Of a DNA stretch of 64,000 bases, positions 14,567 to 56,906 are shown piece after piece. The notes under the pieces were generated by a model, which made no database searches, was not told the origin of the DNA, and saw only the letters and a program-made list of their open reading frames with translations. The stretch is from positions 32,001-96,000 of the IMG/VR virus record IMGVR_UViG_3300028388_003908; one strand, 5' to 3'. The position numbers and the translations under genes are program-made. The DNA comes from a virus. The stretch's first letter is position 1. Every line of letters starts with the position of its first letter.

Positions 14567-14610
14567 TTATCTCGCTCCTTGTTTAGAGAAGGAGCGAGAT
14601 AAAGGACTTA
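14567..14610 (-). promoter_or_regulatory. Putative late promoter TAAGTCCTTTAT (14599-14610) overlapping a 14-bp hairpin that buries the SD of the baseplate operon
   Basis: Perfect inverted repeat 14567-14580/14589-14602. The AAGGAG SD lies in the 3' arm. Confidence 0.7.
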
Positions 14611-15849
14611 GCGGTCCCAGTTAACGGAGCGAGGCACCTCTAGCTTCTGACGTAGCTTCTCAAGCTCAACCTTGTCGGAGAGCTTGCTGAGATTGTCGAT
14701 ACAATCACCAACAAGACCAGTCTCTACGCCAGCGGTCATCTTCACAAGAACCTTCAAGAGTTCTGCATAGGCAGTCTCAATATATCTCTCCATGAGATTG
14801 GCTAAGCTCTCTGTGGCGATGCTGTTAAAGGCCTTCGCGGTCCCGTCAGGATCTTGTGATCTCACCCTAGACTCATTGAGCATCTTACGAACAACTTCGC
14901 CCGTCACTACTTCGTCAGGTCCGCTCATATCCCTCTTCATATACTCAATCGTCTTCTTGATTGATTCATAACGAGAGCTACCTTTAAGGAACTTCTTGGT
15001 GTAAGGAATGACCAGAGCGAGAGCTAGTAGATCATTACGGGTGCCGATTGAGTACTTAGAGGTGGTGGCGAACACTGAACAAGATCTGGCAGCCGAGACA
15101 AAAGAGCGCGCCCCATCTGCCCCGCGAATACGGAGGGCGCTCTGAGAATGCTTAACGATCTCTCGGGTCGCCTCAGGTGAATCAATGAGAGTTAGGATAG
15201 CTTCTCTCATCTTCTCAGATGGACGCGCTGAAAGGATCGTGTCCCCATCAAAAGCCTCTATCTCCTCAGGAGCTTGCATATCAAGTCCCATGTCTCTCTC
15301 AAGACGATAGCGATTTTTCTGAACACGGATAGCGTCAATCATATCGTTTCTCATGGTGGCTGCCACGAGATTGGCTGCGTCTGTCTTAGCCTTCTCTAGG
15401 GTAGTGATACCTCTCTCCCAAGAAGCGCTGTAGATGACCATATCGAGAACCATCTTAGTGTAAGACTCTTCAAGAGCATCTACACCAAAAGAGTTCACAT
15501 AAGAGTTATAACTCTTCTCTAGAGAAGTCTCTACCGCCTTCTCAATCTGCTTGAGATTGGCGGCAGCCTGCATACGGTTCAGATTCATAGAACCCATCAG
15601 CGTTTGAACCGCGTATCTCTCAGGATTTTTACGAACATCCTCCTTTGAGTATTCCCCGCCAGAACCCGCTACAAATTGTTGTGCAAGCATAGGTCCGATA
15701 GCCTTGAGCGACTGCGCGTCAACGGCCATCTTAACGAGAGCGTAGGCAGCCTTTATTCTCTCTGTTCGGGTACCGAAAGAAGCGAATCTTGAGTCGTTCT
15801 TTAGTAGCGCAACAGCCACTCTATAGTGCTTTAGAAATCTCTTACTCAT
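14608..15849 (-). CDS. Hypothetical protein with a basic R/K-x-A leader and a weak sigma-70 region 2-like segment
   Basis: 413 aa ORF with GGAG SD. LVAATMRNDMIDAIRVQKNR resembles ECF sigma region 2.3-2.4 (weak). Confidence 0.5.
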   Translation of the reverse strand: MSKRFLKHYRVAVALLKNDSRFASFGTRTERIKAAYALVKMAVDAQSLKAIGPMLAQQFVAGSGGEYSKEDVRKNPERYAVQTLMGSMNLNRMQAAANLKQIEKAVETSLEKSYNSYVNSFGVDALEESYTKMVLDMVIYSASWERGITTLEKAKTDAANLVAATMRNDMIDAIRVQKNRYRLERDMGLDMQAPEEIEAFDGDTILSARPSEKMREAILTLIDSPEATREIVKHSQSALRIRGADGARSFVSAARSCSVFATTSKYSIGTRNDLLALALVIPYTKKFLKGSSRYESIKKTIEYMKRDMSGPDEVVTGEVVRKMLNESRVRSQDPDGTAKAFNSIATESLANLMERYIETAYAELLKVLVKMTAGVETGLVGDCIDNLSKLSDKVELEKLRQKLEVPRSVNWDR

Positions 15850-16056: not shown

Positions 16057-16794
16057 ATGACAGACAAAATGCCCCGCAACGCTCATCTTTGGTCAAAGCA
16101 ACTCGCTGATCTTCTCATCAAGGATGAGATGGATGACAATCTCACTCGCTCTTATCTGTTCTCTGTTAAAGACAACACATGGGAGAAGACGTTAAACGCG
16201 CTCAAGCGCTACGGTTGCTCTAAGGGCAATCAAGAAGATGAGATGCACGATTTCGCCACCGAATTCATGCTTGATCTTATCGACAAAGACACCCTGCGCT
16301 CTTATCTTGTCGAGGGCAAAGAGGTCAAAATGAGCGTACTCACCGCTTGGTTCGGTCAATTTATGATCCGTAAATGGCAGTATCTTGGCAAGGACGCTTC
16401 ATGTCGCGCTCTCATGGGCGCTCAATCTCAAGCTGAGCGTAAGAATAAGAAGCTCTATACGCTCACATCCGATCAGGTCGCTGAAATCTCTCTCTCAGGC
16501 GGTGACGAGAGCAAGCGCAACATGAACGTGGATTATTTCCGCCGTGACGAGATGACGATTGAGGACGTGTTGCATCAAGAGACCGTGCGCGATTGTATCC
16601 GTAAGCAGATCAACGACCGATTTGGCGAAAGAGCCGATTTCTATCAATCGCTCTACGAGACAGAGATTGATGGGGCGTTCAAGACCCGTACTGAATGGGC
16701 GCGTACTTGGAAGATTCCTTACCGTGATCTTAACAAGGCGCTTGACGAACTTCACAGCGCTGTCCGTGAGCTAGGGGAAGACGCTATCCTTTAA
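16057..16794 (+). CDS. Sigma-70/ECF-like transcription factor
   Basis: Region 2-like QEDEMHDFATEFMLDLI and a C-terminal HTH-like TRTEWARTWKIPYRDLNKALDEL. Confidence 0.55.
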   Translation: MTDKMPRNAHLWSKQLADLLIKDEMDDNLTRSYLFSVKDNTWEKTLNALKRYGCSKGNQEDEMHDFATEFMLDLIDKDTLRSYLVEGKEVKMSVLTAWFGQFMIRKWQYLGKDASCRALMGAQSQAERKNKKLYTLTSDQVAEISLSGGDESKRNMNVDYFRRDEMTIEDVLHQETVRDCIRKQINDRFGERADFYQSLYETEIDGAFKTRTEWARTWKIPYRDLNKALDELHSAVRELGEDAIL

Positions 16795-17068
16795 GATAAC
16801 GACTCGCTACCCTGCGAGCGCTACGGGAAGGGAAATACTCGCTCTTATCCTTCTTACAATGGGGCGAGTTGGGCTCCTTATATTTGCAGTAGATTGACCA
16901 AGCTACGGGGAAAGCGTACTCAGGACCTTCCCCTCTCTCTTCCTCGATCTGCTCTGCCTTCTCTTGAACATACTTGGGAATGTTCCTCTCAGGCTTGTCG
17001 TCATCTGCGTGTCTTGTGGGCAAGGCGTGGGTCGAATAGCCTCCGTAAATGCTGTCATATCCACTCAT
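16784..17068 (-). CDS. Small ChaB-like protein with C-terminal RRVASRYL tag
   Basis: EYAFPVAWSIY resembles the ChaB A..VAW.A motif. Likely start is ATG 17068 behind a GAGGA SD (the ORF track start is 17089). Confidence 0.55.
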   Translation of the reverse strand: MSGYDSIYGGYSTHALPTRHADDDKPERNIPKYVQEKAEQIEEERGEGPEYAFPVAWSIYCKYKEPNSPHCKKDKSEYFPSRSARRVASRYLKG

Positions 17069-17081
17069 GTCGTATCCTCTC

Positions 17082-17121
17082 GATAACACGTTTATATCAT
17101 CGCTTACATAAACGTGTTATC
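17082..17121. promoter_or_regulatory. Two identical face-to-face putative late promoters (GATAACACGTTTAT) forming a 14-bp inverted repeat
   Basis: 17082-17095 on plus points to the tail tube gene. 17108-17121 on minus points to the ChaB-like gene. Confidence 0.7.
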
Positions 17122-33706: not shown

Positions 33707-34519
33707 TCAGCTAAGATCTCCTCTGAGGAGACACGTCTCCGTAGCGCTGTGTACGCTATCTAAAAAAGCATCGCTCCAAGCTAAGGTATATAAGCCTGTC
33801 TCATGTCTAGGTGTGTCCGTGTCAACCTGATTCGGATCCCCTAGCACGATACACTGGCTGTCTTCTGCCACTCTTGAGATGAGAGATAAAAGCTCATGCG
33901 GTGTGGTGTTCTGAGCCTCATCTATGATGACGATAGAATCGTTGAACTCGATACCTCGCACTAGCTCTAAAGGCATGAACGAGAGCTTGCCTTCCTCCTC
34001 TAGCTGAAAAAGCTGGTGCTCAAAGCTCGTACCGAATATCCTCTTGAGCACTACGAGATAAGAGGCGATGTAGCCTTCTAGCTTCTCCCTATGATCACCA
34101 GGGACGGCTGCGATAGCGTTTGATTTACGACCAACAAAGACGGTAGGCTTTACAAGCACAACCTTCTTCTCTTGTCGGAAAAGCTGTGTGAGCGCGTAAG
34201 CGAGCGCGATGGTGGTCTTGCCTGTACCTGCTTCTCCTAGACCGACAACAAGAGGAAAATTCTTGAGCGCGTAGAAAAAGCAAGATTGCTCCGCGTCTCT
34301 AGGCTTTAGCCCTTGATACTCAAGACCTTTTACGTCTACTCGGGAGATCTTGTCATCTAAGGAAAAGCCTAAAGCGCTCGCGCCCGTCTCAGATTTTAAG
34401 ATGTAAAATCCTTGACCGTCCATCATAGGATCAACAAGACCTTCCTTTTCGATCTGCCCCTTCTTATGTAAGACGTTTACGCGCTCGGTTGTGGTATCTA
34501 ACACCTGTATCTCAAGCAT
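33707..34519 (-). CDS. phoH: PhoH-like ATPase, C-terminus possibly truncated
   Basis: Walker A GEAGTGKT, RGIEF, IIDEAQN and LGDPNQVD motifs. Confidence 0.9.
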   Translation of the reverse strand: MLEIQVLDTTTERVNVLHKKGQIEKEGLVDPMMDGQGFYILKSETGASALGFSLDDKISRVDVKGLEYQGLKPRDAEQSCFFYALKNFPLVVGLGEAGTGKTTIALAYALTQLFRQEKKVVLVKPTVFVGRKSNAIAAVPGDHREKLEGYIASYLVVLKRIFGTSFEHQLFQLEEEGKLSFMPLELVRGIEFNDSIVIIDEAQNTTPHELLSLISRVAEDSQCIVLGDPNQVDTDTPRHETGLYTLAWSDAFLDSVHSATETCLLRGDLS

Positions 34520-34574: not shown

Positions 34575-35570
34575 TCAGTAAAGATCGTCCTCAAAATCAT
34601 AATCAGGATCGAAACCGAAAGTCTCCTCCTCTAGCTCCTCCAATGGGCTTGAATCAAAGATCCGATCCTCAAAATCATCCTCATCCTCATCCTCTTCCTC
34701 AAAAATATCTTCAAGAGGATCAATGCCCATGTCTGCGTCATACTCCATCTCATAAGGATAGTCTGGCTCGTACTCCTCATAAAATGTCTCGTCATGCAGT
34801 TTGCGCTCGCTGTCGGTCATAAACAGAGGCTCATCATCCTCTAGATCGAATTCTGCAACATCTGCATCGCCTAGATCATCCACGATAAGATCTGAGAGGT
34901 CGCCTTGAAATCTCTCGTCCTCAGGAAGATCAGCCTCAAGCTCCTCGAGGTCGAAGATAGGACCGTAATAAGCGCGTCTGCTTGAGCGCGCCTTCTTGCT
35001 CGCCTTGTCTAAGATCTCCTCTTGCTCCTCCTCAAGAGCTTTCACCTTAGCCTCAAGCTCTTCTAGCTCGTCCTCGTTCTCCTCGTAATCCTCTGACTGC
35101 ATCGCCTTAGCGCGATTCTTCACCACGTCCTTGTTGATCTCGGTTTGACGGTCGAACTCCTCGGCAGCTTCAGGATGTTCTTCCTTCCACTTCTTGAACT
35201 CTTCCTGACCTTTAGGTCCTGAATGAAAGCGAGCATAGCGAGGAATCATCATAGAGAAGATGCCGAGATCGTCAACGTAACCTTGACCGCCTTCGTATGA
35301 ACCCTCGCCCTCGTAATCGTCATCAAGATCAAGATAATCAACATAATCTTGAGCGTTGCCGGGACCGACAAGATCGAGACCTTGATCATATCCCGAGTTA
35401 ACCTGCACGGTGCTGTCTGCCAAGAAATCAACAGCCTCTCTTGAGCCGTAGTCTCTTCTCATTTGTAGAGGTTGGGTCAGAGCGATCTTCTTGCTGGCGA
35501 CCTTAGACGCGAGATCACCCCTTTGATCCTTCTTAAATTCGTTTGCGATCTTACTAAAAATATCAGACAT
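34575..35570 (-). CDS. Extremely acidic protein with several R/K-x-A motifs, candidate internal head/scaffold protein
   Basis: D/E-dominated composition. SKVASKKIA, PRYA and KKARSSRRA segments. Late-type promoter upstream. Confidence 0.55.
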   Translation of the reverse strand: MSDIFSKIANEFKKDQRGDLASKVASKKIALTQPLQMRRDYGSREAVDFLADSTVQVNSGYDQGLDLVGPGNAQDYVDYLDLDDDYEGEGSYEGGQGYVDDLGIFSMMIPRYARFHSGPKGQEEFKKWKEEHPEAAEEFDRQTEINKDVVKNRAKAMQSEDYEENEDELEELEAKVKALEEEQEEILDKASKKARSSRRAYYGPIFDLEELEADLPEDERFQGDLSDLIVDDLGDADVAEFDLEDDEPLFMTDSERKLHDETFYEEYEPDYPYEMEYDADMGIDPLEDIFEEEDEDEDDFEDRIFDSSPLEELEEETFGFDPDYDFEDDLY

Positions 35571-35637: not shown

Positions 35638-36618
35638 ATGAAAATGATTAAGAGAGGAGATCTTATGCGTAGAATCGCTAAAGCGGATGTTAATCCGATA
35701 CGTCAAGGTTCTCAGTTTTCATGTGTGAGCGCGTCTACCTGTATGGCGTTAAATGCTGTAGGTGTTCAGTGCTCTGAGGAAGACGTAAACAAGGTGATTG
35801 GCGCAAAGCCCATGCAGGGTGCGCGTTGGGAAGAGGTGCTAGCCTGCGCTCAATACTTTGGTTGTAGAGCAACCTTGACCACCCCTGCGACCTTGACTCA
35901 AGTTAAAGCGTGGACAGATCAAGGGAAGCCTGTACTGATCGCTTGGAATCCGGAAGGACGCGATTGGTCACACGCGAGCTTGATCTTTGACGTGACCGGA
36001 GAGAAAGGGGATTATGTGGTTCACGTTGCCGACCCTAATATCCCCAACCCCGATAAGACGACCCGAGAGGTCTCGGAAGACGAATTCTACTCTAAATGGT
36101 TTGAGAAGTGGCCTAACTATCTAGTGCGTAGACCTGCGCTTATGATCGAGCGCGAGATTGACCCTCAAGGCAGACAGATCATGGCGAGCCTTGATAGGGA
36201 ATCTAGGGTCAAGAGTCATAAGCACAACACCAAAAAGGAAGTTAAGGATTCTTACGAGGAGCAAAAGAAGAACTTTGGAAAAGAATGGGCAAAGTATGAA
36301 GGGGCTATGACACCTGAAGGACTTAATCAAGATCGCATTAATAAGAACTTAGGTAAAAAGCCTTCAGGTGGAGGTTTATCTCCTCTCGATAGTCTCGGTA
36401 AAGGTAAAAGCAAGCCTTCAGGAGGAGGTTTGTCCCCTCTTGATAGTCTCGGTAAAGGTAAAAGCAAGCCTTCGGGTGGGGGTTTGTCCCCTCTTGATAG
36501 ACTCGCTTCAGATGACGAGATATTTGATGATCTAGAAATCTACGCAGACGAGCACATGGCGGACCACAGAATCGCGTCATTAAAGCGCTACGCAATCCGG
36601 AAGATGATGGGTCGCTAA
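35638..36618 (+). CDS. C39-like papain-fold cysteine peptidase with low-complexity tail
   Basis: Catalytic residues in RQGSQFSC (Q…C), SHASLI (H) and VADP (D). Likely start is ATG 35665 (MRRIAKA) behind GAGGAG. Confidence 0.8.
   Translation: MKMIKRGDLMRRIAKADVNPIRQGSQFSCVSASTCMALNAVGVQCSEEDVNKVIGAKPMQGARWEEVLACAQYFGCRATLTTPATLTQVKAWTDQGKPVLIAWNPEGRDWSHASLIFDVTGEKGDYVVHVADPNIPNPDKTTREVSEDEFYSKWFEKWPNYLVRRPALMIEREIDPQGRQIMASLDRESRVKSHKHNTKKEVKDSYEEQKKNFGKEWAKYEGAMTPEGLNQDRINKNLGKKPSGGGLSPLDSLGKGKSKPSGGGLSPLDSLGKGKSKPSGGGLSPLDRLASDDEIFDDLEIYADEHMADHRIASLKRYAIRKMMGR
36358..36500 (+). repeat. 54-bp coding tandem repeat, about 2.7 copies (KPSGGGLSPLDSLGKGKS)
   Basis: Units start at 36358, 36412 and 36466 and differ at synonymous positions. 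Confidence 0.95.
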
Positions 36619-36970: not shown

Positions 36971-37477
36971 ATGTCGAGATACGCAAAAGAAAAATATCCT
37001 TGGGACGAGTGCATTAAGGATCAGCTAGAGCAATATGGAGATCAAGAGGTTGCGGAGAAGGTCTGCGGTAAGATCAAAGCACAATCCCAATCTAAGCCCG
37101 CTTCAAGGATTGCCTCTCGCTATCTTCAATCGTCCCGTATGAAGAGTCTTATGATGGAGATAGACGATTCTGACGAGGCTTGGGACTATCTGCATGATAG
37201 TCCAATAGATCGTAGAACTAAAGCGCTTACTTTTATCCGTGCTCTCAGAAGTAGCGTAAATCTGAACAGAGAGCAGGAGACAGCGGTTGCAATTGCCCTA
37301 GATGCGCTCACATACGTCTCTGGCGGTGCAGAGCCTTCAGACATCATCCCCGACAAAGCCCGTAAGATGATACGTCATCTCGCGTATAGAAATGAGCGCA
37401 AGTTGATGACGAGACTGCCTGCCTTACCTGCTGGCATTGTCTATAAAGACGAGATCCGCAGATTGTTCGGTTCATAA
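36971..37477 (+). CDS. Hypothetical protein with internal SRIASRYL tag
   Basis: Small YPWDECI…AEKVCGKIK domain followed by the tag at 37103-37126. Confidence 0.7.
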   Translation: MSRYAKEKYPWDECIKDQLEQYGDQEVAEKVCGKIKAQSQSKPASRIASRYLQSSRMKSLMMEIDDSDEAWDYLHDSPIDRRTKALTFIRALRSSVNLNREQETAVAIALDALTYVSGGAEPSDIIPDKARKMIRHLAYRNERKLMTRLPALPAGIVYKDEIRRLFGS

Positions 37478-39329: not shown

Positions 39330-40274
39330 TCAACCTAAATACTTAGAGGCTACTCTGACCGGATTTGATCGGATCTCTTGCATCTCAAAATTACCGTTCT
39401 CGTCTCCGTGACCGTAGCGATAAATCTCAAAAGAGCATACCGCAGGTCCGGAAAATCTCTTCTCAAAACCCGCATAACCACAGCAATCTGGAAACAGATA
39501 AAGATACATCTTACGCTCTATCGGATCAAACACCGTGTGAGAGCTTGTGTAAAGATTAGACCTGCGCGAGACGTTGAAAGGATCATCAGGATTTCTGAGA
39601 CGGTCGCCATAGATACTAGGGGCTAAGTCTTGCACCTTTTGAATCTGTCTTATGCGCTTCTGCGCTCTGCGCTTTCTCTCATGGGAAGAATCTCGATTGA
39701 CACCATACTGATAGCCTGTATCAGGATTCCAAACACCATGGTTTGTGCGAACGTGGGTCTTGTCCGATCTCAGCTTTCTAACGTGAAGATCGCCTTCTTC
39801 CCCCTCTAGTACGCCTTTCAAGGTGCGCTCGATCCCATACGTCTCATAACCATCTGAGAGCAGATTATGCCCCAACACACCCTTGTTAGTGGAAGCCTTC
39901 CTGACCGCTTCATCTAAGGTAGTGCTCGATAGTATCTCAAGCATCAAGTTACCGTCCTTATAGCTATCTCTAGCTAGGATTCGGGACAAATTCTCCATGC
40001 CCTCATCATCGGGGTCGTATTCATCCTTCTTCTTTGAGGGGCGGTCCTTCTCGTCATCTAAGACCATCAGAGCGCTGTTGACGAGAGAGATACCGTACTC
40101 GTTAATACCCTCAATCCAACCCGTATCAACATCCTGAAAATATAGGATCTCAACCCCGTTGACGCGGTCGTGATACACCTTAATGTCGGGGTCATAATTG
40201 CGATCTCTGTTCTTAAACAGGACCACCTTGCCCTCACATGGTGTCGCAGAGATTGTGCAAGCCTTTTTGTCCAT
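39330..40274 (-). CDS. Ntn-hydrolase (C45/NRDE-like) with MDKKA leader and C-terminal VRVASKYL tag
   Basis: CT…KNRDR, EGINEYGISLVNSAL and RTNH motifs. Confidence 0.8.
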   Translation of the reverse strand: MDKKACTISATPCEGKVVLFKNRDRNYDPDIKVYHDRVNGVEILYFQDVDTGWIEGINEYGISLVNSALMVLDDEKDRPSKKKDEYDPDDEGMENLSRILARDSYKDGNLMLEILSSTTLDEAVRKASTNKGVLGHNLLSDGYETYGIERTLKGVLEGEEGDLHVRKLRSDKTHVRTNHGVWNPDTGYQYGVNRDSSHERKRRAQKRIRQIQKVQDLAPSIYGDRLRNPDDPFNVSRRSNLYTSSHTVFDPIERKMYLYLFPDCCGYAGFEKRFSGPAVCSFEIYRYGHGDENGNFEMQEIRSNPVRVASKYLG

Positions 40275-40275
40275 A

Positions 40276-41745
40276 TCAACCTGCCATATACGCGGTTCGG
40301 AATCTAGGATTCTGTCTCAAGAGACGATGAATCTGCTGTATAGAGGCTCTTCTAAATATCTTCTTGAAGAGGCTCTTACCGCCTTCCCAAATCTTAGAAC
40401 CTACGTTCTTTAAGAACTTGAATCCTTTGGCAAGGTCCTTAATGACTGCCACACTCACCGGCGCTAGAGACACACCTAATTTTCGGATAATCTGAGCAGT
40501 AGCTTTAGTGTCGGAGATTAAAACGATCAGTAGAATCACACCTAAGATCTTCACGATACCTAGACCTACCGTGGCGAGCGCTGTCTTCATCAAGAGCGCG
40601 ATTGCAGAAGCCTTTAGGATTGAGAGACCGAGCTTAACCACAATCAACTGATGATCAGGAATGCCGGTTGACACATATTGATTGAGATCCTCCCACTTAG
40701 TCATACCCCAATTCGCAAGGGTAATCTCTTTAGGATCAATCCCCAACATATCTCTAATCTCTGACGTACCTGTCCCCGCTACTTTAGCGACCTGAGCAGG
40801 TGTACGGGCAGAGAGCAATTGACCTATTACTTTGAGCGTAGAACTAAAATCACCTGCGCTCTTTAGACGACTCGCAATCAAGCGCTCATACTCGGTCTTA
40901 GGTTTCGTGCCTGCGTCTACAAGCACATGAACCTTTTTTGTAAGACCTTTCGCCTTCAGTACGTTCACGAAAAGATCAATCTCACCTTTGTTGATACCCT
41001 TGATCTTCTCTTTAAAATTGTTGATGATCTCAGAGAGATAACCCATACCTACAGCGTCTTTAACCTCGGGATTATCGAGCTGTTCCATCGCATCGTCCAT
41101 AGCGCCTGCGTATGCGGTCTTTGTATCTCCTATCACTAGAGATAGTACCTTACGCATACGATCAAACTCTCTCATAGAACCTGAGGCGATAATGGCTCTG
41201 CGGATCATCTGATTCTGCTCATGGGCAATCAGTACATTGTGAATAGAGGCTTGTCTGCTTCTCATATAAGAACCTTTCTTTTGTGTGTGTTTCTTTTTCC
41301 ATGCCCTCCACTTAGCGTGTTGAGGGCTAGATTTAAGCGAGGGATCGTGTCCCCAATTTCTAAGACTGATTTCCCATTTAGACATACCGCTGTCTTCTAT
41401 AGGCTCACCCGGCTCATTCCCGAGCATCCTGGAATTAAAGCCGTTCTCTTGCGAGGCGTTGTCGAAATCGTCTGCGCTCCAATCCTCAAAAGGCTTGGAT
41501 TTCCTGCGCTTAATCCGATGGAAAGAGTCGTAACCTGATTGTATACCGCCAGAATCCTTAGCCTCTGATCTGTTGATAGAGGCGAGCAATCTCCGTTCAT
41601 CCTCAGCCCATTTATCAAGCGCATCTTGACTCATGTTAATGAGCTTATGCCACTTGTCATATATCTCACGCTTTTCTTTGTCGGAGCGCGCCTTCGCTGA
41701 TCGGTACATACATCTGCCCCTATCTCTTTTCTTAGAGACAGACAA
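40276..41745 (-). CDS. DUF3140-like N-terminal domain fused to a helical/hydrophobic domain
   Basis: INMS…L..W…SLRNWGHDP motif. The real start is probably the downstream ATG of MYRSA. Confidence 0.7.
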   Translation of the reverse strand: MSVSKKRDRGRCMYRSAKARSDKEKREIYDKWHKLINMSQDALDKWAEDERRLLASINRSEAKDSGGIQSGYDSFHRIKRRKSKPFEDWSADDFDNASQENGFNSRMLGNEPGEPIEDSGMSKWEISLRNWGHDPSLKSSPQHAKWRAWKKKHTQKKGSYMRSRQASIHNVLIAHEQNQMIRRAIIASGSMREFDRMRKVLSLVIGDTKTAYAGAMDDAMEQLDNPEVKDAVGMGYLSEIINNFKEKIKGINKGEIDLFVNVLKAKGLTKKVHVLVDAGTKPKTEYERLIASRLKSAGDFSSTLKVIGQLLSARTPAQVAKVAGTGTSEIRDMLGIDPKEITLANWGMTKWEDLNQYVSTGIPDHQLIVVKLGLSILKASAIALLMKTALATVGLGIVKILGVILLIVLISDTKATAQIIRKLGVSLAPVSVAVIKDLAKGFKFLKNVGSKIWEGGKSLFKKIFRRASIQQIHRLLRQNPRFRTAYMAG

Positions 41746-43328: not shown

Positions 43329-44609
43329 TCAGCCCTTGGTTATGTAATAATCATCCGAGAGAAGGTCGATACACTTTTGCGTCTCTTTATCCTCTCTCAC
43401 CTCAGACAGCCCCTTGCCGTGTGAAGATTCGATCTTCACCTTGTAGTAGAGATAAGGCTTATTAGACATGACGTGAGGTATCAAGAGCGTTTGACCATAA
43501 TCCTCGATTGTGCCTAGATCCCTGGCTGCGTCTGACTCAAACACAAACTTGATGCCCTCACGCTCTACCGTAAAGCCCTCATAGATAGATCTCAGATTAT
43601 CGTTGTACGCGCTGAAGTTCTTAGCGTCCCATTTGTCGTAAATGCGCTCCTTGAACATCTTAGCGAGCTCGGGACGCAAGAACTTAGCTACCTCTTTAGC
43701 CTTGTCACCGTCTCCCAAACTAAGAGCATTAGTAGCCTCGCTCTCGTCCATCTTCATCTCAATGTTCAAGCCGTAGTTGAATGGGCCTACCCAACCTTCC
43801 CCGTTGGAGCGTAGCATAGATCCATCGGCTTGGGTCAGGATAACAGAGGGTCTAAAGCGCTTGGGCAGATAAGCTAGACGAGAGGAGCCCTTCTTGGTCA
43901 GCGTATATCCTTTGCTCTCTAGCACCTCTTTACAATGCGCCTTCTCTAGATCCTCTTTGGTAATACGAGATCTGTTACCGCCCATGACGCTCACAATGTT
44001 AATAACAACGGTCGAAGCGCTAGGCGTCTTAACCGCTATGTCTCCTCGTCTTGTCTTGAGCAAATCACTATGATTAGGGAAGTTAACAGGCGCCATAACA
44101 TAGAGCAGATTGTCCCCGTTTGAGGGGGCCTTGATTTTCTCACTACCGCCGGTGCCTTGGGAAAACCATTTAAATATCTTGTTGTAATCAGAGACGTTTT
44201 TACTATTCCAAGCCTGCTCCATCTTAAGAAAGGTGTGCTTCACCATATTATGCACATCTCCGGATGTGATACAGCGCAAGTCCATTCGATGTTGAGCATG
44301 GGACGTAAGTCTCACCCCGATCTTGAACGTGTCTTTTCCGGACCAAGGACTGCCGTCAGACAGCTTCATGCTGTGCTTTACGCTCACCACGAAATCCGGA
44401 TCAGATGATGCAGGATAGATTTTCTTCTCTAGCGTGTTTGTGAGGAAAGTCTGATTTCTAAGCTGATCAGACACCTCAAATCTCATGTTCTCGGGCGCTC
44501 TCTTGAGTACAAGATCAGGTCCACATTCCTTGCGATCCCCTAAATCGTCAAAACGTGAGCGCGCTGTTCTCATCATAGCTCTAATGATCTGTCTTCTGGA
44601 TGTCCTCAT
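43329..44609 (-). CDS. Protein with a DUF4258-like (RelE-fold) domain and basic MMRTA leader
   Basis: LTSHAQHRMDLRCITSGDV matches S.HA..RM..R.I. Confidence 0.55.
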   Translation of the reverse strand: MRTSRRQIIRAMMRTARSRFDDLGDRKECGPDLVLKRAPENMRFEVSDQLRNQTFLTNTLEKKIYPASSDPDFVVSVKHSMKLSDGSPWSGKDTFKIGVRLTSHAQHRMDLRCITSGDVHNMVKHTFLKMEQAWNSKNVSDYNKIFKWFSQGTGGSEKIKAPSNGDNLLYVMAPVNFPNHSDLLKTRRGDIAVKTPSASTVVINIVSVMGGNRSRITKEDLEKAHCKEVLESKGYTLTKKGSSRLAYLPKRFRPSVILTQADGSMLRSNGEGWVGPFNYGLNIEMKMDESEATNALSLGDGDKAKEVAKFLRPELAKMFKERIYDKWDAKNFSAYNDNLRSIYEGFTVEREGIKFVFESDAARDLGTIEDYGQTLLIPHVMSNKPYLYYKVKIESSHGKGLSEVREDKETQKCIDLLSDDYYITKG

Positions 44610-49956: not shown

Positions 49957-51276
49957 TTATGACCTCTTTCTTTGACGTAGAAGATAAAGATTCGTCTCAT
50001 GTGCGTTAGCAATAGACATAATAAAATCATCAAGTCCTAGAGACATACCGCCATTATCTTTTATCATATCGTAGACGCGCTTTAAGATGGGCTGTATGCG
50101 CTCCTCTGCGATAAGAGCGCGTGTAATAGGATCGGTAGCGTCATTGTGGATCAAGACCTGAATCGACTGCTGAGCTTGAGGCACCGGCGCAACCGCTACA
50201 GGACCGTATTCCCCTACAATCTTCTCCGCTAAGGTGTCGATCTCGTCCTCTAAGGACTCATAGAGACGCTCCATCAGCTGATGATCCCCATAAGAGGATA
50301 GTCCTTTAACCTGCCAATGTGAGGTCCAATGGGACCAATGCACAGCGCGCAGTACAGCCAAGAGCGTCTGCATGATCTCTAGCTTCACGTCAGCGGAGGC
50401 ATATCGGATTTTATTAGAGGAAGCCTTCTTAGAACGAACCTTAAAGAACTCCTTAGACCCGTTGTGTGAGAGATTTCCTTGTCGATCAATATCGTAGTAA
50501 CCCATGTCATTTACCCCTATATCAAGCGCCTTGCGCGAGCGTCTGTTCTTCTGTCTTACGGTAGAGACACCACCGCCCTCGTATCTTTTAAATCTGTTCA
50601 AGTGCTTACGCCTCTTTTGATTGTAGCGCTTGATCCTTGAGCGATTTTTCAGATAGTAGCGTCTTCTCTTTGTCTTGAGTTTGGTCTTGTTCTTAAGACG
50701 GTTTTTAATGCGCCATTTTTTGTACTCTCTGCGAGCCTGACCCTTCTGCTTACGCTGTCTTTTTGAAGGGATTTTTACCGAGATAAACGCGCTCTTAAAG
50801 AGATCTCCGTTCTCGTCTACGTCATAGATAAAATCCTCGTCTTCAAGATAAGGATCTAATACCTCACCCATGAGCGCGTCTAAAGCTACTCTGCGCTTCA
50901 ATCCTGTAGAGGTAGACTGATCTATATAAGGATGACCATACTGATCTCCGGGTAAACCACTAGAGCGAGGTCGCTGATGTAGAGGCTTACCGTCAGGCTG
51001 ATTTGGTATCGCGTTAGGATTGGGAGCTTTGGAGTAAGACGTAGAAGCACCCGATGAATCCGAAGGTGTATTCGATACAGGAGGTCCCGCCCTCTGCTCT
51101 GTCCTGCCTTCTGGATGACCTGAAGGTAGGGGCAATACCCGATCTCTTTTAGGCTGACCGTCTGCGTAATCCTCTCTACTTGGAGAAGGCGCCGGCGTGT
51201 TCTCTCTAGAATCATTTACCCATGTACGAACGCCACTAAGCTCTTGAACAGGTTGACTATGACCCATAGTGTTCAC
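49957..51276 (-). CDS. Multidomain protein: disordered N-terminus, very basic K/R tract, C-terminal Dps/ferritin-like domain
   Basis: HWQVKG…DH.LMERLY…EIDTLAE matches the Dps ferroxidase-centre pattern. Confidence 0.8.
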   Translation of the reverse strand: MNTMGHSQPVQELSGVRTWVNDSRENTPAPSPSREDYADGQPKRDRVLPLPSGHPEGRTEQRAGPPVSNTPSDSSGASTSYSKAPNPNAIPNQPDGKPLHQRPRSSGLPGDQYGHPYIDQSTSTGLKRRVALDALMGEVLDPYLEDEDFIYDVDENGDLFKSAFISVKIPSKRQRKQKGQARREYKKWRIKNRLKNKTKLKTKRRRYYLKNRSRIKRYNQKRRKHLNRFKRYEGGGVSTVRQKNRRSRKALDIGVNDMGYYDIDRQGNLSHNGSKEFFKVRSKKASSNKIRYASADVKLEIMQTLLAVLRAVHWSHWTSHWQVKGLSSYGDHQLMERLYESLEDEIDTLAEKIVGEYGPVAVAPVPQAQQSIQVLIHNDATDPITRALIAEERIQPILKRVYDMIKDNGGMSLGLDDFIMSIANAHETNLYLLRQRKRS

Positions 51277-51638
51277 CTGCCTTTGAGATAGGCGAGCGCT
51301 ACCTTCTTGACGGGATCTTGATTGTACTTAGAGGCGATATCCACCTTCTCTCGATCCGTGTGAGGCAAGCGTTGACGATAAAAACCTTCACCCATCTTGA
51401 TGAGCGCATAATTGGTCATATCTAGAGAGCGCTCTAGTCTATCTAAAGACTGAGGAATACCGCTAAGCGCGTCCCCAAACTTCTGATAGATTTCCTCTTT
51501 CAGATCCTCATCGCAATCTTCCAAGGTCTCTCGGATTTGATTGCAAAAGGATCTGATAATATGCGCCTGTACTCTAGAGGAGGAAGCCCCCTCTGCGAGC
51601 ACAGACCAACTAGCTTGACTTGAGGATCTTTTTCTCAT
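51273..51638 (-). CDS. Hypothetical helical protein with C-terminal KKVALAYL tag
   Basis: ORF with AGGAG SD and late-type promoter. Confidence 0.7.
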   Translation of the reverse strand: MRKRSSSQASWSVLAEGASSSRVQAHIIRSFCNQIRETLEDCDEDLKEEIYQKFGDALSGIPQSLDRLERSLDMTNYALIKMGEGFYRQRLPHTDREKVDIASKYNQDPVKKVALAYLKGR

Positions 51639-53238: not shown

Positions 53239-54840
53239 GTGGAGAGCGACAAGCTATTAAAGACTATCGAGAAGCTGAGAAAAATCCGAACTAGAGAAGA
53301 TCTTGTGCCTCCTGCTTCTAACATCTTGAGATCGCATCTGCCGGACGGAAACAAACTCACCCTTCGTCAATATCAGATCCAAGGTATCCTACATCTGCTC
53401 GCCATGCCTCGCTTTGTGCTAGGGGATGACACCGGTCTTGGTAAGACTCTACAGACGATCAGCGCGCTCTCGTATGTTTGGGATAAGCGACCAGAGATAC
53501 CCGCGATTATCTGTACGACCAAGAGCGCTGTTGGTCAGTGGGAATCAGAATTTGAGCGCTTTACACATGGCGTCAAGGTCTTTAAATGTCTCGGGACAAA
53601 AAAACAGCGCAGGAAGATTTATGACGCCTTCTTTGAAGCGGAAGGCCCTAAAGCGATCATCCTAGGATATCGCACCGCTTGCGTTGATTTCGACATCCTT
53701 CAACCTATGGCCGGTCACGTTATGATCTTTGACGAGGCGACCGCGTTTAAGAATGATACCTCACAAGTGCACCAAGTATGCAAGCACCTAGCAGGCTCAG
53801 CAGAGCGCGTGTGGTCTCTAAGCGCTACCATCATCAAAAATCGTCTGATGGAAGCATGGGCGATTTACAAAGTTACCGTGCCTCACCTCTTTACAACCAA
53901 GACCGCGTTTATGCGTGATTACTGCATCACCCGAGATCAACCCCTACCTGGAGGGCGCAGACGCATTAAGGTTGTGGTCGGTCACCGTAAGCATGACATA
54001 CAAGCGTTCAGAGAGCTTATCGACCCGTACTTTATCGGAAGACCCAAGCATGAGGTGGCTAAGGAGCTACCCCCTCTCACCTCTAAGACCATCGCTTGCG
54101 AACTCACAAAAGAGCAGAAGGTAAAGTATCGTGAAGCGCTTAATGGTCTACTAGAGGTTAATGATGACGAGACCGGCGAGACAAAAGAGCGCGAGGTTAC
54201 TAAGCTCACCGCCGTGACCGTCTGTCAGCAAATCGTAAACCACCCCTCTCTCGTTAATGTCGATGGTGAATCCGGTAAGCTAGACTCTCTTGTCGATTTG
54301 CTCACCAATGAGCTTGACGGTGAGAAGGTAATCGTCTTCTCTCGCTTCCGACAGATGGTCGATATACTAGAGGAAACGCTGAAAAAAGCTAAGATTAAGA
54401 CGAGCAGGATCACCGGCGCAGAGGGCGGGGATCAGCGTCTCGCGTCTCAGAAGGCCTTTCAAGACGAGAAATCAGACGTGAGGGTGTGCCTTATCACCAT
54501 GGCGGCTGCCGAAGGCGTCAATCTACAGCTAGCCAAAGCGGTCGTCTTCTATGACACGCCATGGAGCGCTGGTGATTATCTACAGATCATAGGGCGCATG
54601 ATCCGTATTGGCTCAATACATGAGCGCGTATTCTCATATCACCTATGCGCCCCTAAGACCATTGATGACCGCGTTATGAAATCTCTCAAAGCTAAGATGA
54701 ATCTGATCGAGAGCGTCTTAGGTAAGCGTCTCAAAGCAGAAGGCGAGGAAGAGGACGTGATCGAGGTCGGGCGCTCGGAGATCGCAGATCTATTCGATGG
54801 TCTGCTAGAGGATGCAAACGATATAATCAAAACCAAGTAA
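53239..54840 (+). CDS. SNF2-family helicase/ATPase
   Basis: Motifs DDTGLGKT, FDEA, LSAT, KVIVFSRF, EGVNLQ and QIIGRMIRIG. Confidence 0.95.
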   Translation: MESDKLLKTIEKLRKIRTREDLVPPASNILRSHLPDGNKLTLRQYQIQGILHLLAMPRFVLGDDTGLGKTLQTISALSYVWDKRPEIPAIICTTKSAVGQWESEFERFTHGVKVFKCLGTKKQRRKIYDAFFEAEGPKAIILGYRTACVDFDILQPMAGHVMIFDEATAFKNDTSQVHQVCKHLAGSAERVWSLSATIIKNRLMEAWAIYKVTVPHLFTTKTAFMRDYCITRDQPLPGGRRRIKVVVGHRKHDIQAFRELIDPYFIGRPKHEVAKELPPLTSKTIACELTKEQKVKYREALNGLLEVNDDETGETKEREVTKLTAVTVCQQIVNHPSLVNVDGESGKLDSLVDLLTNELDGEKVIVFSRFRQMVDILEETLKKAKIKTSRITGAEGGDQRLASQKAFQDEKSDVRVCLITMAAAEGVNLQLAKAVVFYDTPWSAGDYLQIIGRMIRIGSIHERVFSYHLCAPKTIDDRVMKSLKAKMNLIESVLGKRLKAEGEEEDVIEVGRSEIADLFDGLLEDANDIIKTK

Positions 54841-55854: not shown

Positions 55855-56427
55855 ATGAGCAACGTATTTGGCGGGAAAAATGAGCGGGCGGTATATATAC
55901 CCATGTCCGAGACCGAGCTTGAGGTTATAGCGCGTCTGGTTGATTCAGACGACCTCAAGGTCGTGTTGCACGGTTGGGGAGTGATCGAATCTCCAAAGAT
56001 CACATACGGAGACAAGAACTTGCACATCCCTATCAAGATGACCTTCAACAAGCCTGTAGAGGCTCCTCAAGACGTTTACTATTTCGACATGGAGCTAAAG
56101 ACAGGATCAGGCATCTCTCTCTTTAAGAAGCGCATGAGCACCTCGTATGGAGGACAACCTTTAAAGGTGATGGCAGGTCTAGAGCTAGAGATGGTTTGGG
56201 ATATCTCTATACGTCACCTAGACCCAAACCTAGTGCGCGCAGTAAAGCCCGGTGCTAGAGGTCTGACCTCTAAGCTACAAGACAAGCTGACGCTCGATTT
56301 TACCGATACCGGAAACATGAGGTTAGACCGGAATCAAGCAGATCAAGCTCGACAAATCCGTGCGATGGAGAAACTGATCAACAAGATGGATCAGGGCAAG
56401 CTCGCAAAGAACAATCAGAAGACGTAA
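55855..56427 (+). CDS. Hypothetical protein
   Basis: 190 aa ORF with TATAAT upstream. Confidence 0.7.
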   Translation: MSNVFGGKNERAVYIPMSETELEVIARLVDSDDLKVVLHGWGVIESPKITYGDKNLHIPIKMTFNKPVEAPQDVYYFDMELKTGSGISLFKKRMSTSYGGQPLKVMAGLELEMVWDISIRHLDPNLVRAVKPGARGLTSKLQDKLTLDFTDTGNMRLDRNQADQARQIRAMEKLINKMDQGKLAKNNQKT

Positions 56428-56906
56428 ACGCGGTAACCGGGGATGCCCGACATACGCGAGATCTCTCTTGAGATGGTCAAGCCTTTCTTGATCTTCGCAA
56501 CATCTACGATAAGCTCATCATGCTCTTGACGAGTCTCATCGAGATTACTTGAAGTCACCTCAAGCTGATAAGTATCGCCCCTGCGCTCAGCCTGCTTTAG
56601 ATCGCGCTCTAATCTAGAGATTATAGAGGCGTAATCTTTCTGCCTCTGCTCAAGATTCTTGATAATCTCCTTGTTCAGATTGGTCCGAGACCTCGTGATC
56701 AGATCACCCTCATCTTTGATCCAAATGGTCTCTCCAGTGTGGTATGTCCCGAGCAAACGGAAAGCGATAGCCTCTACAATCGAGGCAGGGTCACGATACT
56801 TTGCGGTATCGAAAATGGTAGGCTTACCTGCGCTACGCTCAAGGCGCGCTACGCGCATCTCTAGGTCTTTTAGATTGAACATCATCAAATCCTTCACTTG
56901 TGTCAT
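56415..56906 (-). CDS. Coiled-coil protein with N-terminal LEMRVARLERSA leader
   Basis: Leader resembles the R-V-A tag family found elsewhere in the window. Confidence 0.65.
   Translation of the reverse strand: MTQVKDLMMFNLKDLEMRVARLERSAGKPTIFDTAKYRDPASIVEAIAFRLLGTYHTGETIWIKDEGDLITRSRTNLNKEIIKNLEQRQKDYASIISRLERDLKQAERRGDTYQLEVTSSNLDETRQEHDELIVDVAKIKKGLTISREISRMSGIPGYRVYVF

Follow-up and report, generated by a model that had tools for sequence, protein, structure and literature searches.

A capped Cys-Ntn amidase in a phage with a phage-G-like head module, and its possible arming by the head maturation protease

The window analysed here is the whole stretch of 64,000 nucleotides that makes up bases 32001-96000 of a 143,151-base viral record, which CheckV estimated to be 46% complete; no close relative came up when 20 kb of the window were compared with the phage collection by megablast. 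The gene under study, its parts, and its upstream neighbor are the following:

39330..40274, minus strand: gene for a Cys-Ntn hydrolase (C45/AAT-like amidase) of 314 residues, assigned from the open reading frame, homologs, and fold
40260..40274, minus strand: leader codons M1-D2-K3-K4-A5, with Lys at P3 and Ala at P1 (open reading frame and homolog alignment)
40257..40259, minus strand: codon of Cys6, the predicted N-terminal nucleophile (near-invariant in the homolog alignment, with a structural match)
39333..39356, minus strand: C-terminal peptide RVASKYLG of the Ntn protein, a recurrent tag
40276..41745, minus strand: DUF3140-like gene upstream of the Ntn gene (sub-threshold DUF3140 match), possibly starting MYRSA and having RFRTAYMAG as its C-terminal tag

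The Ntn protein begins MDKKA-CTIS, and the NRD, GINE.G, and TNH motifs that a sequence-only reading of this DNA had picked out behind the MDKKA-CTI start are present as KNRDR, GINEYG, and RTNHG. Because the ATG at 40274 is the sole start codon 3' of the upstream in-frame stop, the leader is exactly five residues long. The TGA of the DUF3140-like gene adjoins this ATG, with one base between them, and in four relatives (P0005, P0006, P0011, and P0013) the DUF3140 protein is fused to the Ntn domain through a K-x-A|C junction (...NKKA|C).

Searches of Pfam and PHROGs with the Ntn protein gave no match, and sequence searches of the PDB (with the protein, the Ntn profile, and the head protease described below) gave nothing useful. 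An AlphaFold model built on 66 relatives (pLDDT 85.7) has the four-layer alpha-beta-beta-alpha fold, and Foldseek matched it to isopenicillin N acyltransferase (IAT; E 5e-8), CV2077, bile salt hydrolases, penicillin V acylase, NAAA, and acid ceramidase. A second aligner, VIA, gave Z 15-19 for CV2077, NAAA, acid ceramidase, IAT, BSH, PVA, and PGA, and paired model residue 6 with Cys103 of mature IAT, Cys126 of NAAA, Cys143 of acid ceramidase, and Cys2 of bile salt hydrolases. Nearly all mature chains align from model residue 6 onward, while residues 1-5 pair with the end of the IAT propeptide (in the IAT precursor, model residue 1 falls on residue 98). Since Cys6 matches the solved nucleophiles, we take it as the Ntn nucleophile and MDKKA as a propeptide. 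Membership in the Cys-Ntn hydrolases, as proposed from the letters alone together with a masked Cys, is thus confirmed at the level of the modeled fold, in which the nucleophile is hidden by a true five-residue cap. In the same model, residues 305-313, over the RVASKYLG tag region, form a separate terminal helix.

The sequence-only reading had placed the enzyme among NRDE-type members, and here our results differ. The enzyme appears closest to C45/AAT: TANGO2 appeared at Foldseek ranks 39-48 (E about 1e-3), far behind IAT, which points to a C45-like family rather than NRDE, and PF05742 (NRDE/TANGO2) matched neither the Ntn protein nor the homologs listed. Among 600 relatives in a large protein collection, many carry PF03417 (AAT/C45), including many homologs at 35-66% identity, and residues 4-256 align to positions 88-313 of NCBIfam NF040521 (C45 family autoproteolytic acyltransferase/hydrolase; E 6e-6, 25.7 bits against a cutoff of 85). 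Peptidase C45/IAT (PF03417; PDB 2x1c, 2x1d, 2x1e) resembles the Ntn protein in fold and in having its Cys nucleophile where the first core strand begins, preceded by a propeptide. Unlike the Ntn protein, IAT has a propeptide of about 100 residues that is self-cleaved at Gly102-Cys103, whereas the phage protein has a five-residue cap with Ala at P1 and scores under the C45 family cut-offs. The C59 enzymes (BSH and penicillin V acylase) and C89 enzymes (NAAA and acid ceramidase) likewise agree in fold and nucleophile position at the Z scores given above, though at identities of only 14-18%. In BSH, removal of Met1 alone exposes the Cys, a situation that recurs in the M|C homologs of the Ntn protein described below.

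Ntn hydrolases are textbook self-activating enzymes, and self-cleavage is the rule in every solved relative with a propeptide: IAT, NAAA, acid ceramidase, and the penicillin and cephalosporin acylases. An alternative to any outside protease is that Cys6 itself attacks the A5-C6 bond and the cap is lost in the cytoplasm, with the motif before the Cys maintained by common descent or as a consequence of leaders being cut there in any case. Two facts speak for such self-processing: autoproteolysis holds without exception among the close structural relatives made with a propeptide (the precursors of IAT, NAAA, and acid ceramidase, the last two cleaving themselves in the lysosome), and the nearest NCBIfam model is named for an "autoproteolytic" proenzyme. 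As a point against cleavage by the head protease, the model places the scissile A5-C6 bond at the start of a core beta-strand, where an outside protease might find it hard to reach.

The residues before the Cys were compared in 245 relatives with a recognizable Cys. The class [KR]-x-[ASG]|C accounts for 170/245, which bears out the expectation that K-x-A would precede the Cys in homologs; 59/245 have [LIVM]-x-E|C, 11/245 have the start codon alone (M|C), and the remaining 5/245 fall outside these classes (e.g., TSE, RLV, LGQ). In the K-x-A class, P3 is Lys or Arg and P1 is Ala, Ser, or Gly, while P2 and P4 vary. Leader length before the Cys ranges from 4 to 1557 residues, being 7 or fewer in roughly half of the K-x-A class, and the fixed positions are P3 and P1 alone. 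On these alignments, selection on P3 and P1 alone looks like the pattern expected of a protease site. In the tree of Ntn domains, the K-x-A and L-x-E classes are separated by one change, and this single phylogenetic split is a further point for self-processing. The M|C forms have several separate origins on the same tree, which indicates that the enzyme folds without any leader; a propeptide is therefore not needed for folding, and this weighs against self-processing, as does the switch of P1 and P3 from small/basic to acidic/hydrophobic on a conserved core, which is hard to ascribe to the enzyme's own active site.

A prohead protease lying outside the window had been postulated, and the head module was indeed found outside the window in the same record (genome coordinates):

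133478-135298: large terminase
131580-133268: portal
126477-127883: head maturation protease, phage-G-like (phrog_18299, E 3e-16), between the portal and the major capsid protein
125089-126444: putative scaffold, very acidic, 451 residues
123420-124298: major capsid protein

The major capsid protein shares 86% identity with its counterpart in a 485-kb uncultured phage, 46% with the one in Tunturi_5, and 38% with gp27 of Bacillus phage G. Relatives of the G-type protease number more than 1000 and are widespread in huge phages; searches with the protease also reach cluster C mycobacteriophages. No T4-type S77 protease was found in this genome, of which the record is estimated to hold 46%. Protease type follows the pre-Cys class of the Ntn enzyme. 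Among K-x-A records including this genome, 9/10 have the G-type protease (the one without is 42% complete) and 0/6 have S77; among L-x-E records, S77 was found in 7/9, one of them the cultured phage MA9V-1 (both exceptions are fragments), and phrog_18299 in 0/5. We rejected this co-variation as independent replication: the tree holds one K-x-A/L-x-E change and the sampled K-x-A phages have capsid proteins 81-93% identical to each other, so the link between motif and protease amounts to one event, not many.

Within the protease itself, 117 relatives have W..K-[SA]-A|S directly after the catalytic domain, ahead of an acidic linker that varies. Self-cleavage of related giant-phage proteases falls at this place, and the G-type protease may carry its own cut site in the conserved sequence. 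Residues 39-44 near its N-terminus read VRVASK, a tag-like stretch kept in 98% of the 117 relatives.

Other open reading frames in the window carry the motif or a related tag:

35638..36618, plus strand: C39-like peptidase with MRRIA|KADV; Pfam C39_2 match from residue 17; the ortholog in the complete relative G003 starts MRRKAKADV
56415..56906, minus strand: member of a leader-cassette family, ...LEMRVARLERSA|GKP; paralogous leaders elsewhere end RRA, KTA, RSS, KTA, and KEA
36971..37477, plus strand: open reading frame starting MSRYA|KEKYPW, with an internal RIASRYL tag
43329..44609, minus strand: open reading frame with MMRTA|RSRF near its N-terminus; no family recognized
49957..51276, minus strand: 439-residue protein in which KIRYA|SADVK (residues 289-298) precedes a C-terminal domain
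14608..15849, minus strand: open reading frame with VKMA|VDA at residues 39-45; no family recognized
16784..17089, minus strand: small protein ending in the tag RRVASRYLKG
51273..51638, minus strand: small protein ending in the tag KKVALAYLKGR

All seven [RK]-x-A peptides quoted in the sequence-only reading occur in the frames it named. Its generalization that recognizable domains begin right after such sites stood in part: the C39-like match starts 3 residues past RIA, but the DUF3140 match is below threshold and the other examples are without a recognized domain. The protein with KIRYA|SADVK, which had been called a Dps, could not be confirmed as one; its sole match is a sub-threshold one to DUF5856 (residues 327-370). 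A PhoH-like ATPase (window 33707-34519, minus strand) and a SNF2-family helicase (53239-54840, plus strand) flank the cargo gene cluster.

Enrichment across genomes was assessed against chance by shuffling residues 2-30 of each open reading frame. In this genome, 9 open reading frames start M-x-[KR]-x-A versus 1.4 expected, and [KR]-x-A occurs 63 times in the first 30 residues versus about 40 expected (z about 3.8); the complete relative G003 has 129 N-terminal [KR]-x-A versus 80 expected (z 7.1), and [LIV]-x-E is enriched at N-termini in neither. The L-x-E genome G007 shows the opposite, with 233 N-terminal [LIV]-x-E versus 161 expected (z 6.1) and [KR]-x-A depleted. Once open reading frames with recurrent leaders or tags were removed, the [KR]-x-A excess fell to z 1.4-1.9, which is not significant, so what looked like a separate "site" is in several cases the R-[VI]-A core of a tag, and we rejected the genome-wide excess as a free-standing signal.

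Leader cassettes of the form ...LE.R[IV]A.LE end in [KR]-x-[AS] exactly where paralogs pass from conserved to variable sequence, with the endings RRA, KTA, RSS, KTA, RSA, and KEA in this genome and KEA, REA, KKS, KES, and DKA in G003. One small-protein family has the leader MRRTASEVIRDLEMRVARLE followed by unrelated sequence (genome 1729, 4273, 24520, 112063, and 130666, and window 56415-56906), and G003 has at least 10 genes of this family, several of them beside the head module. In G007, the Ntn leader has IRRIL.EE in common with other open reading frames of that genome. Each pre-Cys motif is thus the leader-end motif of its own phage group, a second point that self-processing does not readily accommodate. 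At G007 loci L116-L128, dozens of open reading frames have leaders of the types MKIIITE[SN]Q..L..E or MK..I[KR][KR]ILKEE, and these sequences suggest that G007, whose protease is of the T4 type, has a very large set of cargo proteins marked by leaders.

Relative to composition, the largest [KR]-x-A excess in this genome lies in the putative scaffold (18 versus 5.6 expected, p about 2e-5). The second-largest belongs to a 789-residue protein, and the head protease ranks fifth by p-value and third by raw excess; orthologs of the scaffold and of the 789-residue protein head the list in G003 as well. The many motifs recall T4, whose scaffold is cut at many sites. The check proposed earlier, whether scaffold and capsid have the same site as the Ntn leader, gave support in the putative scaffold, while the major capsid protein gave none: K26-L-A28 was considered as a cut site there and dropped, as it is conserved in close relatives only and reads A-L-A in phage G, and no conserved site common to the major capsid protein and phage G was found. 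The 789-residue protein (genome 136639-139008) has the ortholog with the highest [KR]-x-A excess in G003, and its neighbor gene (genome 139005-139679) ends in the tag-like RLLADRYMRGSK. An acidic protein encoded at window 34575-35570 (minus strand) repeats the capsid N-terminal TQPL.(M/L)RRDY at identical residue numbers and is fourth in the genome for [KR]-x-A excess.

Peptides of the RVASKYLG type are common to several unrelated proteins of this phage, and the copy at the end of the Ntn protein is probably a head-loading tag. The strict form R-[VI]-A-x-x-[YF]-[LIMF] occurs in 23/170 K-x-A homologs, 0/59 L-x-E forms, and 0/11 M|C forms; of these 23, 9 have it ahead of the Cys, 5 have it at the C-terminus like the Ntn protein, and 9 have it elsewhere. 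The putative scaffold ends ...APDVSRYFG and its G003 counterpart (178152-179819) DVSKFFG, both of which resemble the cargo tags ...RVASKYLG and ...RVASRYLKG. Judging from this resemblance, cargo tags may mimic the C-terminal peptide of the scaffold, which would be its coat-binding end. The suggestion that the protease also strips tags found no support for C-terminal ones, as tags such as RVASKYLG are without a downstream site to remove them.

Long relatives often carry the Ntn domain internally in multi-enzyme proteins, for example RNA ligase + nucleotidyltransferase + HAD + 2H phosphoesterase + Ntn + topoisomerase IB, or 2H + superoxide dismutase + DUF5661 + Ntn. The metagenomic relatives P0132 and P0136 are cargo-like proteins of 1900-2800 residues that join RNA ligase, nucleotidyltransferase, HAD, 2H phosphoesterase, superoxide dismutase, and topoisomerase IB modules to Ntn. 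Tags at other domain borders were few in the five polyproteins searched for them. The internal position also suits self-processing, since a self-cleaving module would help there, and it raises a different possibility, namely that the chief role of the Ntn domain is to cut itself free and so split packaged polyproteins, the 314-residue form being a remnant with little catalytic role of its own. Relatives of 500-2800 residues do place Ntn between RNA-repair, SOD, PAP2, and topoisomerase IB modules, and the upstream DUF3140 gene is fused across K-K-A|C in the relatives described above; we nevertheless regard a release role as highly improbable, as the short leaders (7 residues or fewer) found in roughly half of the K-x-A class leave nothing to release and stand-alone forms keep the full set of invariant residues. 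More improbable still is that a host peptidase takes off the cap, or that the cap stays on, leaving a protein that is inactive or needs no free alpha-amine to work: we found no specific point in favor, the motif follows the type of phage protease and not the host, and the Cys and catalytic residues are nearly invariant. Taken jointly, the explanations other than self-cleavage that compete with the head protease are improbable.

Among the relatives listed, about a fifth have C-terminal ChaC/GGACT gamma-glutamyl cyclotransferase domains, and for this reason the substrate of the Ntn enzyme is probably a small amide or gamma-glutamyl compound. These fusions and the cargo-polyprotein setting fit an injected enzyme that would act on a host amide. 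The large Ntn relatives are in this respect like the polyvalent proteins of Iyer et al. 2017 (PMC5512222), being multi-enzyme proteins that are probably packaged and injected, though that paper has no mention of Ntn hydrolases (0 occurrences of "Ntn") and proposes embedded metallopeptidases, not a head protease, for the processing of polyvalent proteins.

Together, these observations favor an activation route in which the Ntn amidase would be made with its nucleophile capped by MDKKA, and the C-terminal RVASKYLG would probably load it into the head. There the phage-G-like protease (phrog_18299), which we infer to cut after [KR]-x-[ASG], would cleave after K3-K4-A5, making Cys6 the new N-terminus and arming the enzyme inside the prohead, and the armed enzyme would then be delivered with the DNA into the next host. 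The protease specificity, the packaging of the enzyme, and the cleavage in trans are all steps that we infer. The strongest argument for an outside protease comes from comparing sequences: two clades have opposite P1/P3 chemistry on one conserved core, each matching the leader-end motif of its own phage group. On this comparison, the earlier idea of activation by a prohead protease is partly supported, and we consider it somewhat probable that the head maturation protease cuts the cap in trans and arms the enzyme in the prohead. Self-processing of the cap by Cys6 is possible but, in our judgment, rather unlikely. We found no papers describing Ntn activation by a head protease or cleavage or packaging in the K-x-A clade, nor any on G-type protease specificity, Ntn domains in polyvalent proteins, or phage G processing sites. 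Among the cultured phages of the phage collection, only the Chryseobacterium phages MA9V-1 and MA9V-2 were found to have the Ntn enzyme, and the papers on them report SDS-PAGE only, without virion mass spectrometry.

T4 offers the nearest comparison. Its internal proteins IPI-III and Alt are head-packaged with a short N-terminal leader, the capsid targeting sequence, which ends in a consensus site of the prohead protease gp21 and is removed by it; the Ntn protein would be built and processed along similar lines. Proteases of the gp21 group recognize a short motif and cut behind its Glu, a type of site that [LIV]-x-E matches. Alt loses a 6-residue leader at ITE-6 (PMC5694885). The second class of Ntn leaders, MKITE|C or MITE|C, has an architecture matching that of the Alt leader, and the L-x-E sister clade of the enzyme sits in phages with a gp21-type S77 protease. 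Unlike T4, the phage described here has another protease family (phrog_18299, phage-G-like) with the motif that the leaders point to being [KR]-x-[AS], and the putative loading tag of its Ntn protein is C-terminal, whereas the capsid targeting sequence of T4 is N-terminal. Further, no catalytic residue is known to arise from the T4 cut, but the one proposed for the Ntn protein would create the nucleophile itself. A broader reading, to which we give about an even chance, is that a large clade of huge phages with phage-G-like heads runs a head-cargo system of portable tags and a [KR]-x-[AS]-cutting protease, in which the cut creates the catalytic N-terminus of a packaged Ntn amidase, and that T4-like phages do the same with L-x-E.

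If true, the arming of an Ntn enzyme in trans by a viral capsid protease would add a new activation route, because Ntn hydrolases are textbook self-activators, and the phage would offer a clear case of an injected enzyme kept silent while still in the producing cell. We found no description of a maturation-protease specificity of the form [KR]-x-[AS] in the literature, and as the enzyme narrows the scissile bond to one peptide bond, it yields a precise and testable prediction of how the G-type protease family cleaves. The residues before the Cys in this Ntn family would, if the reading holds, report the head-protease specificity of uncultured phages, and the leader and tag rules could serve to list head cargo in metagenomic phage genomes.
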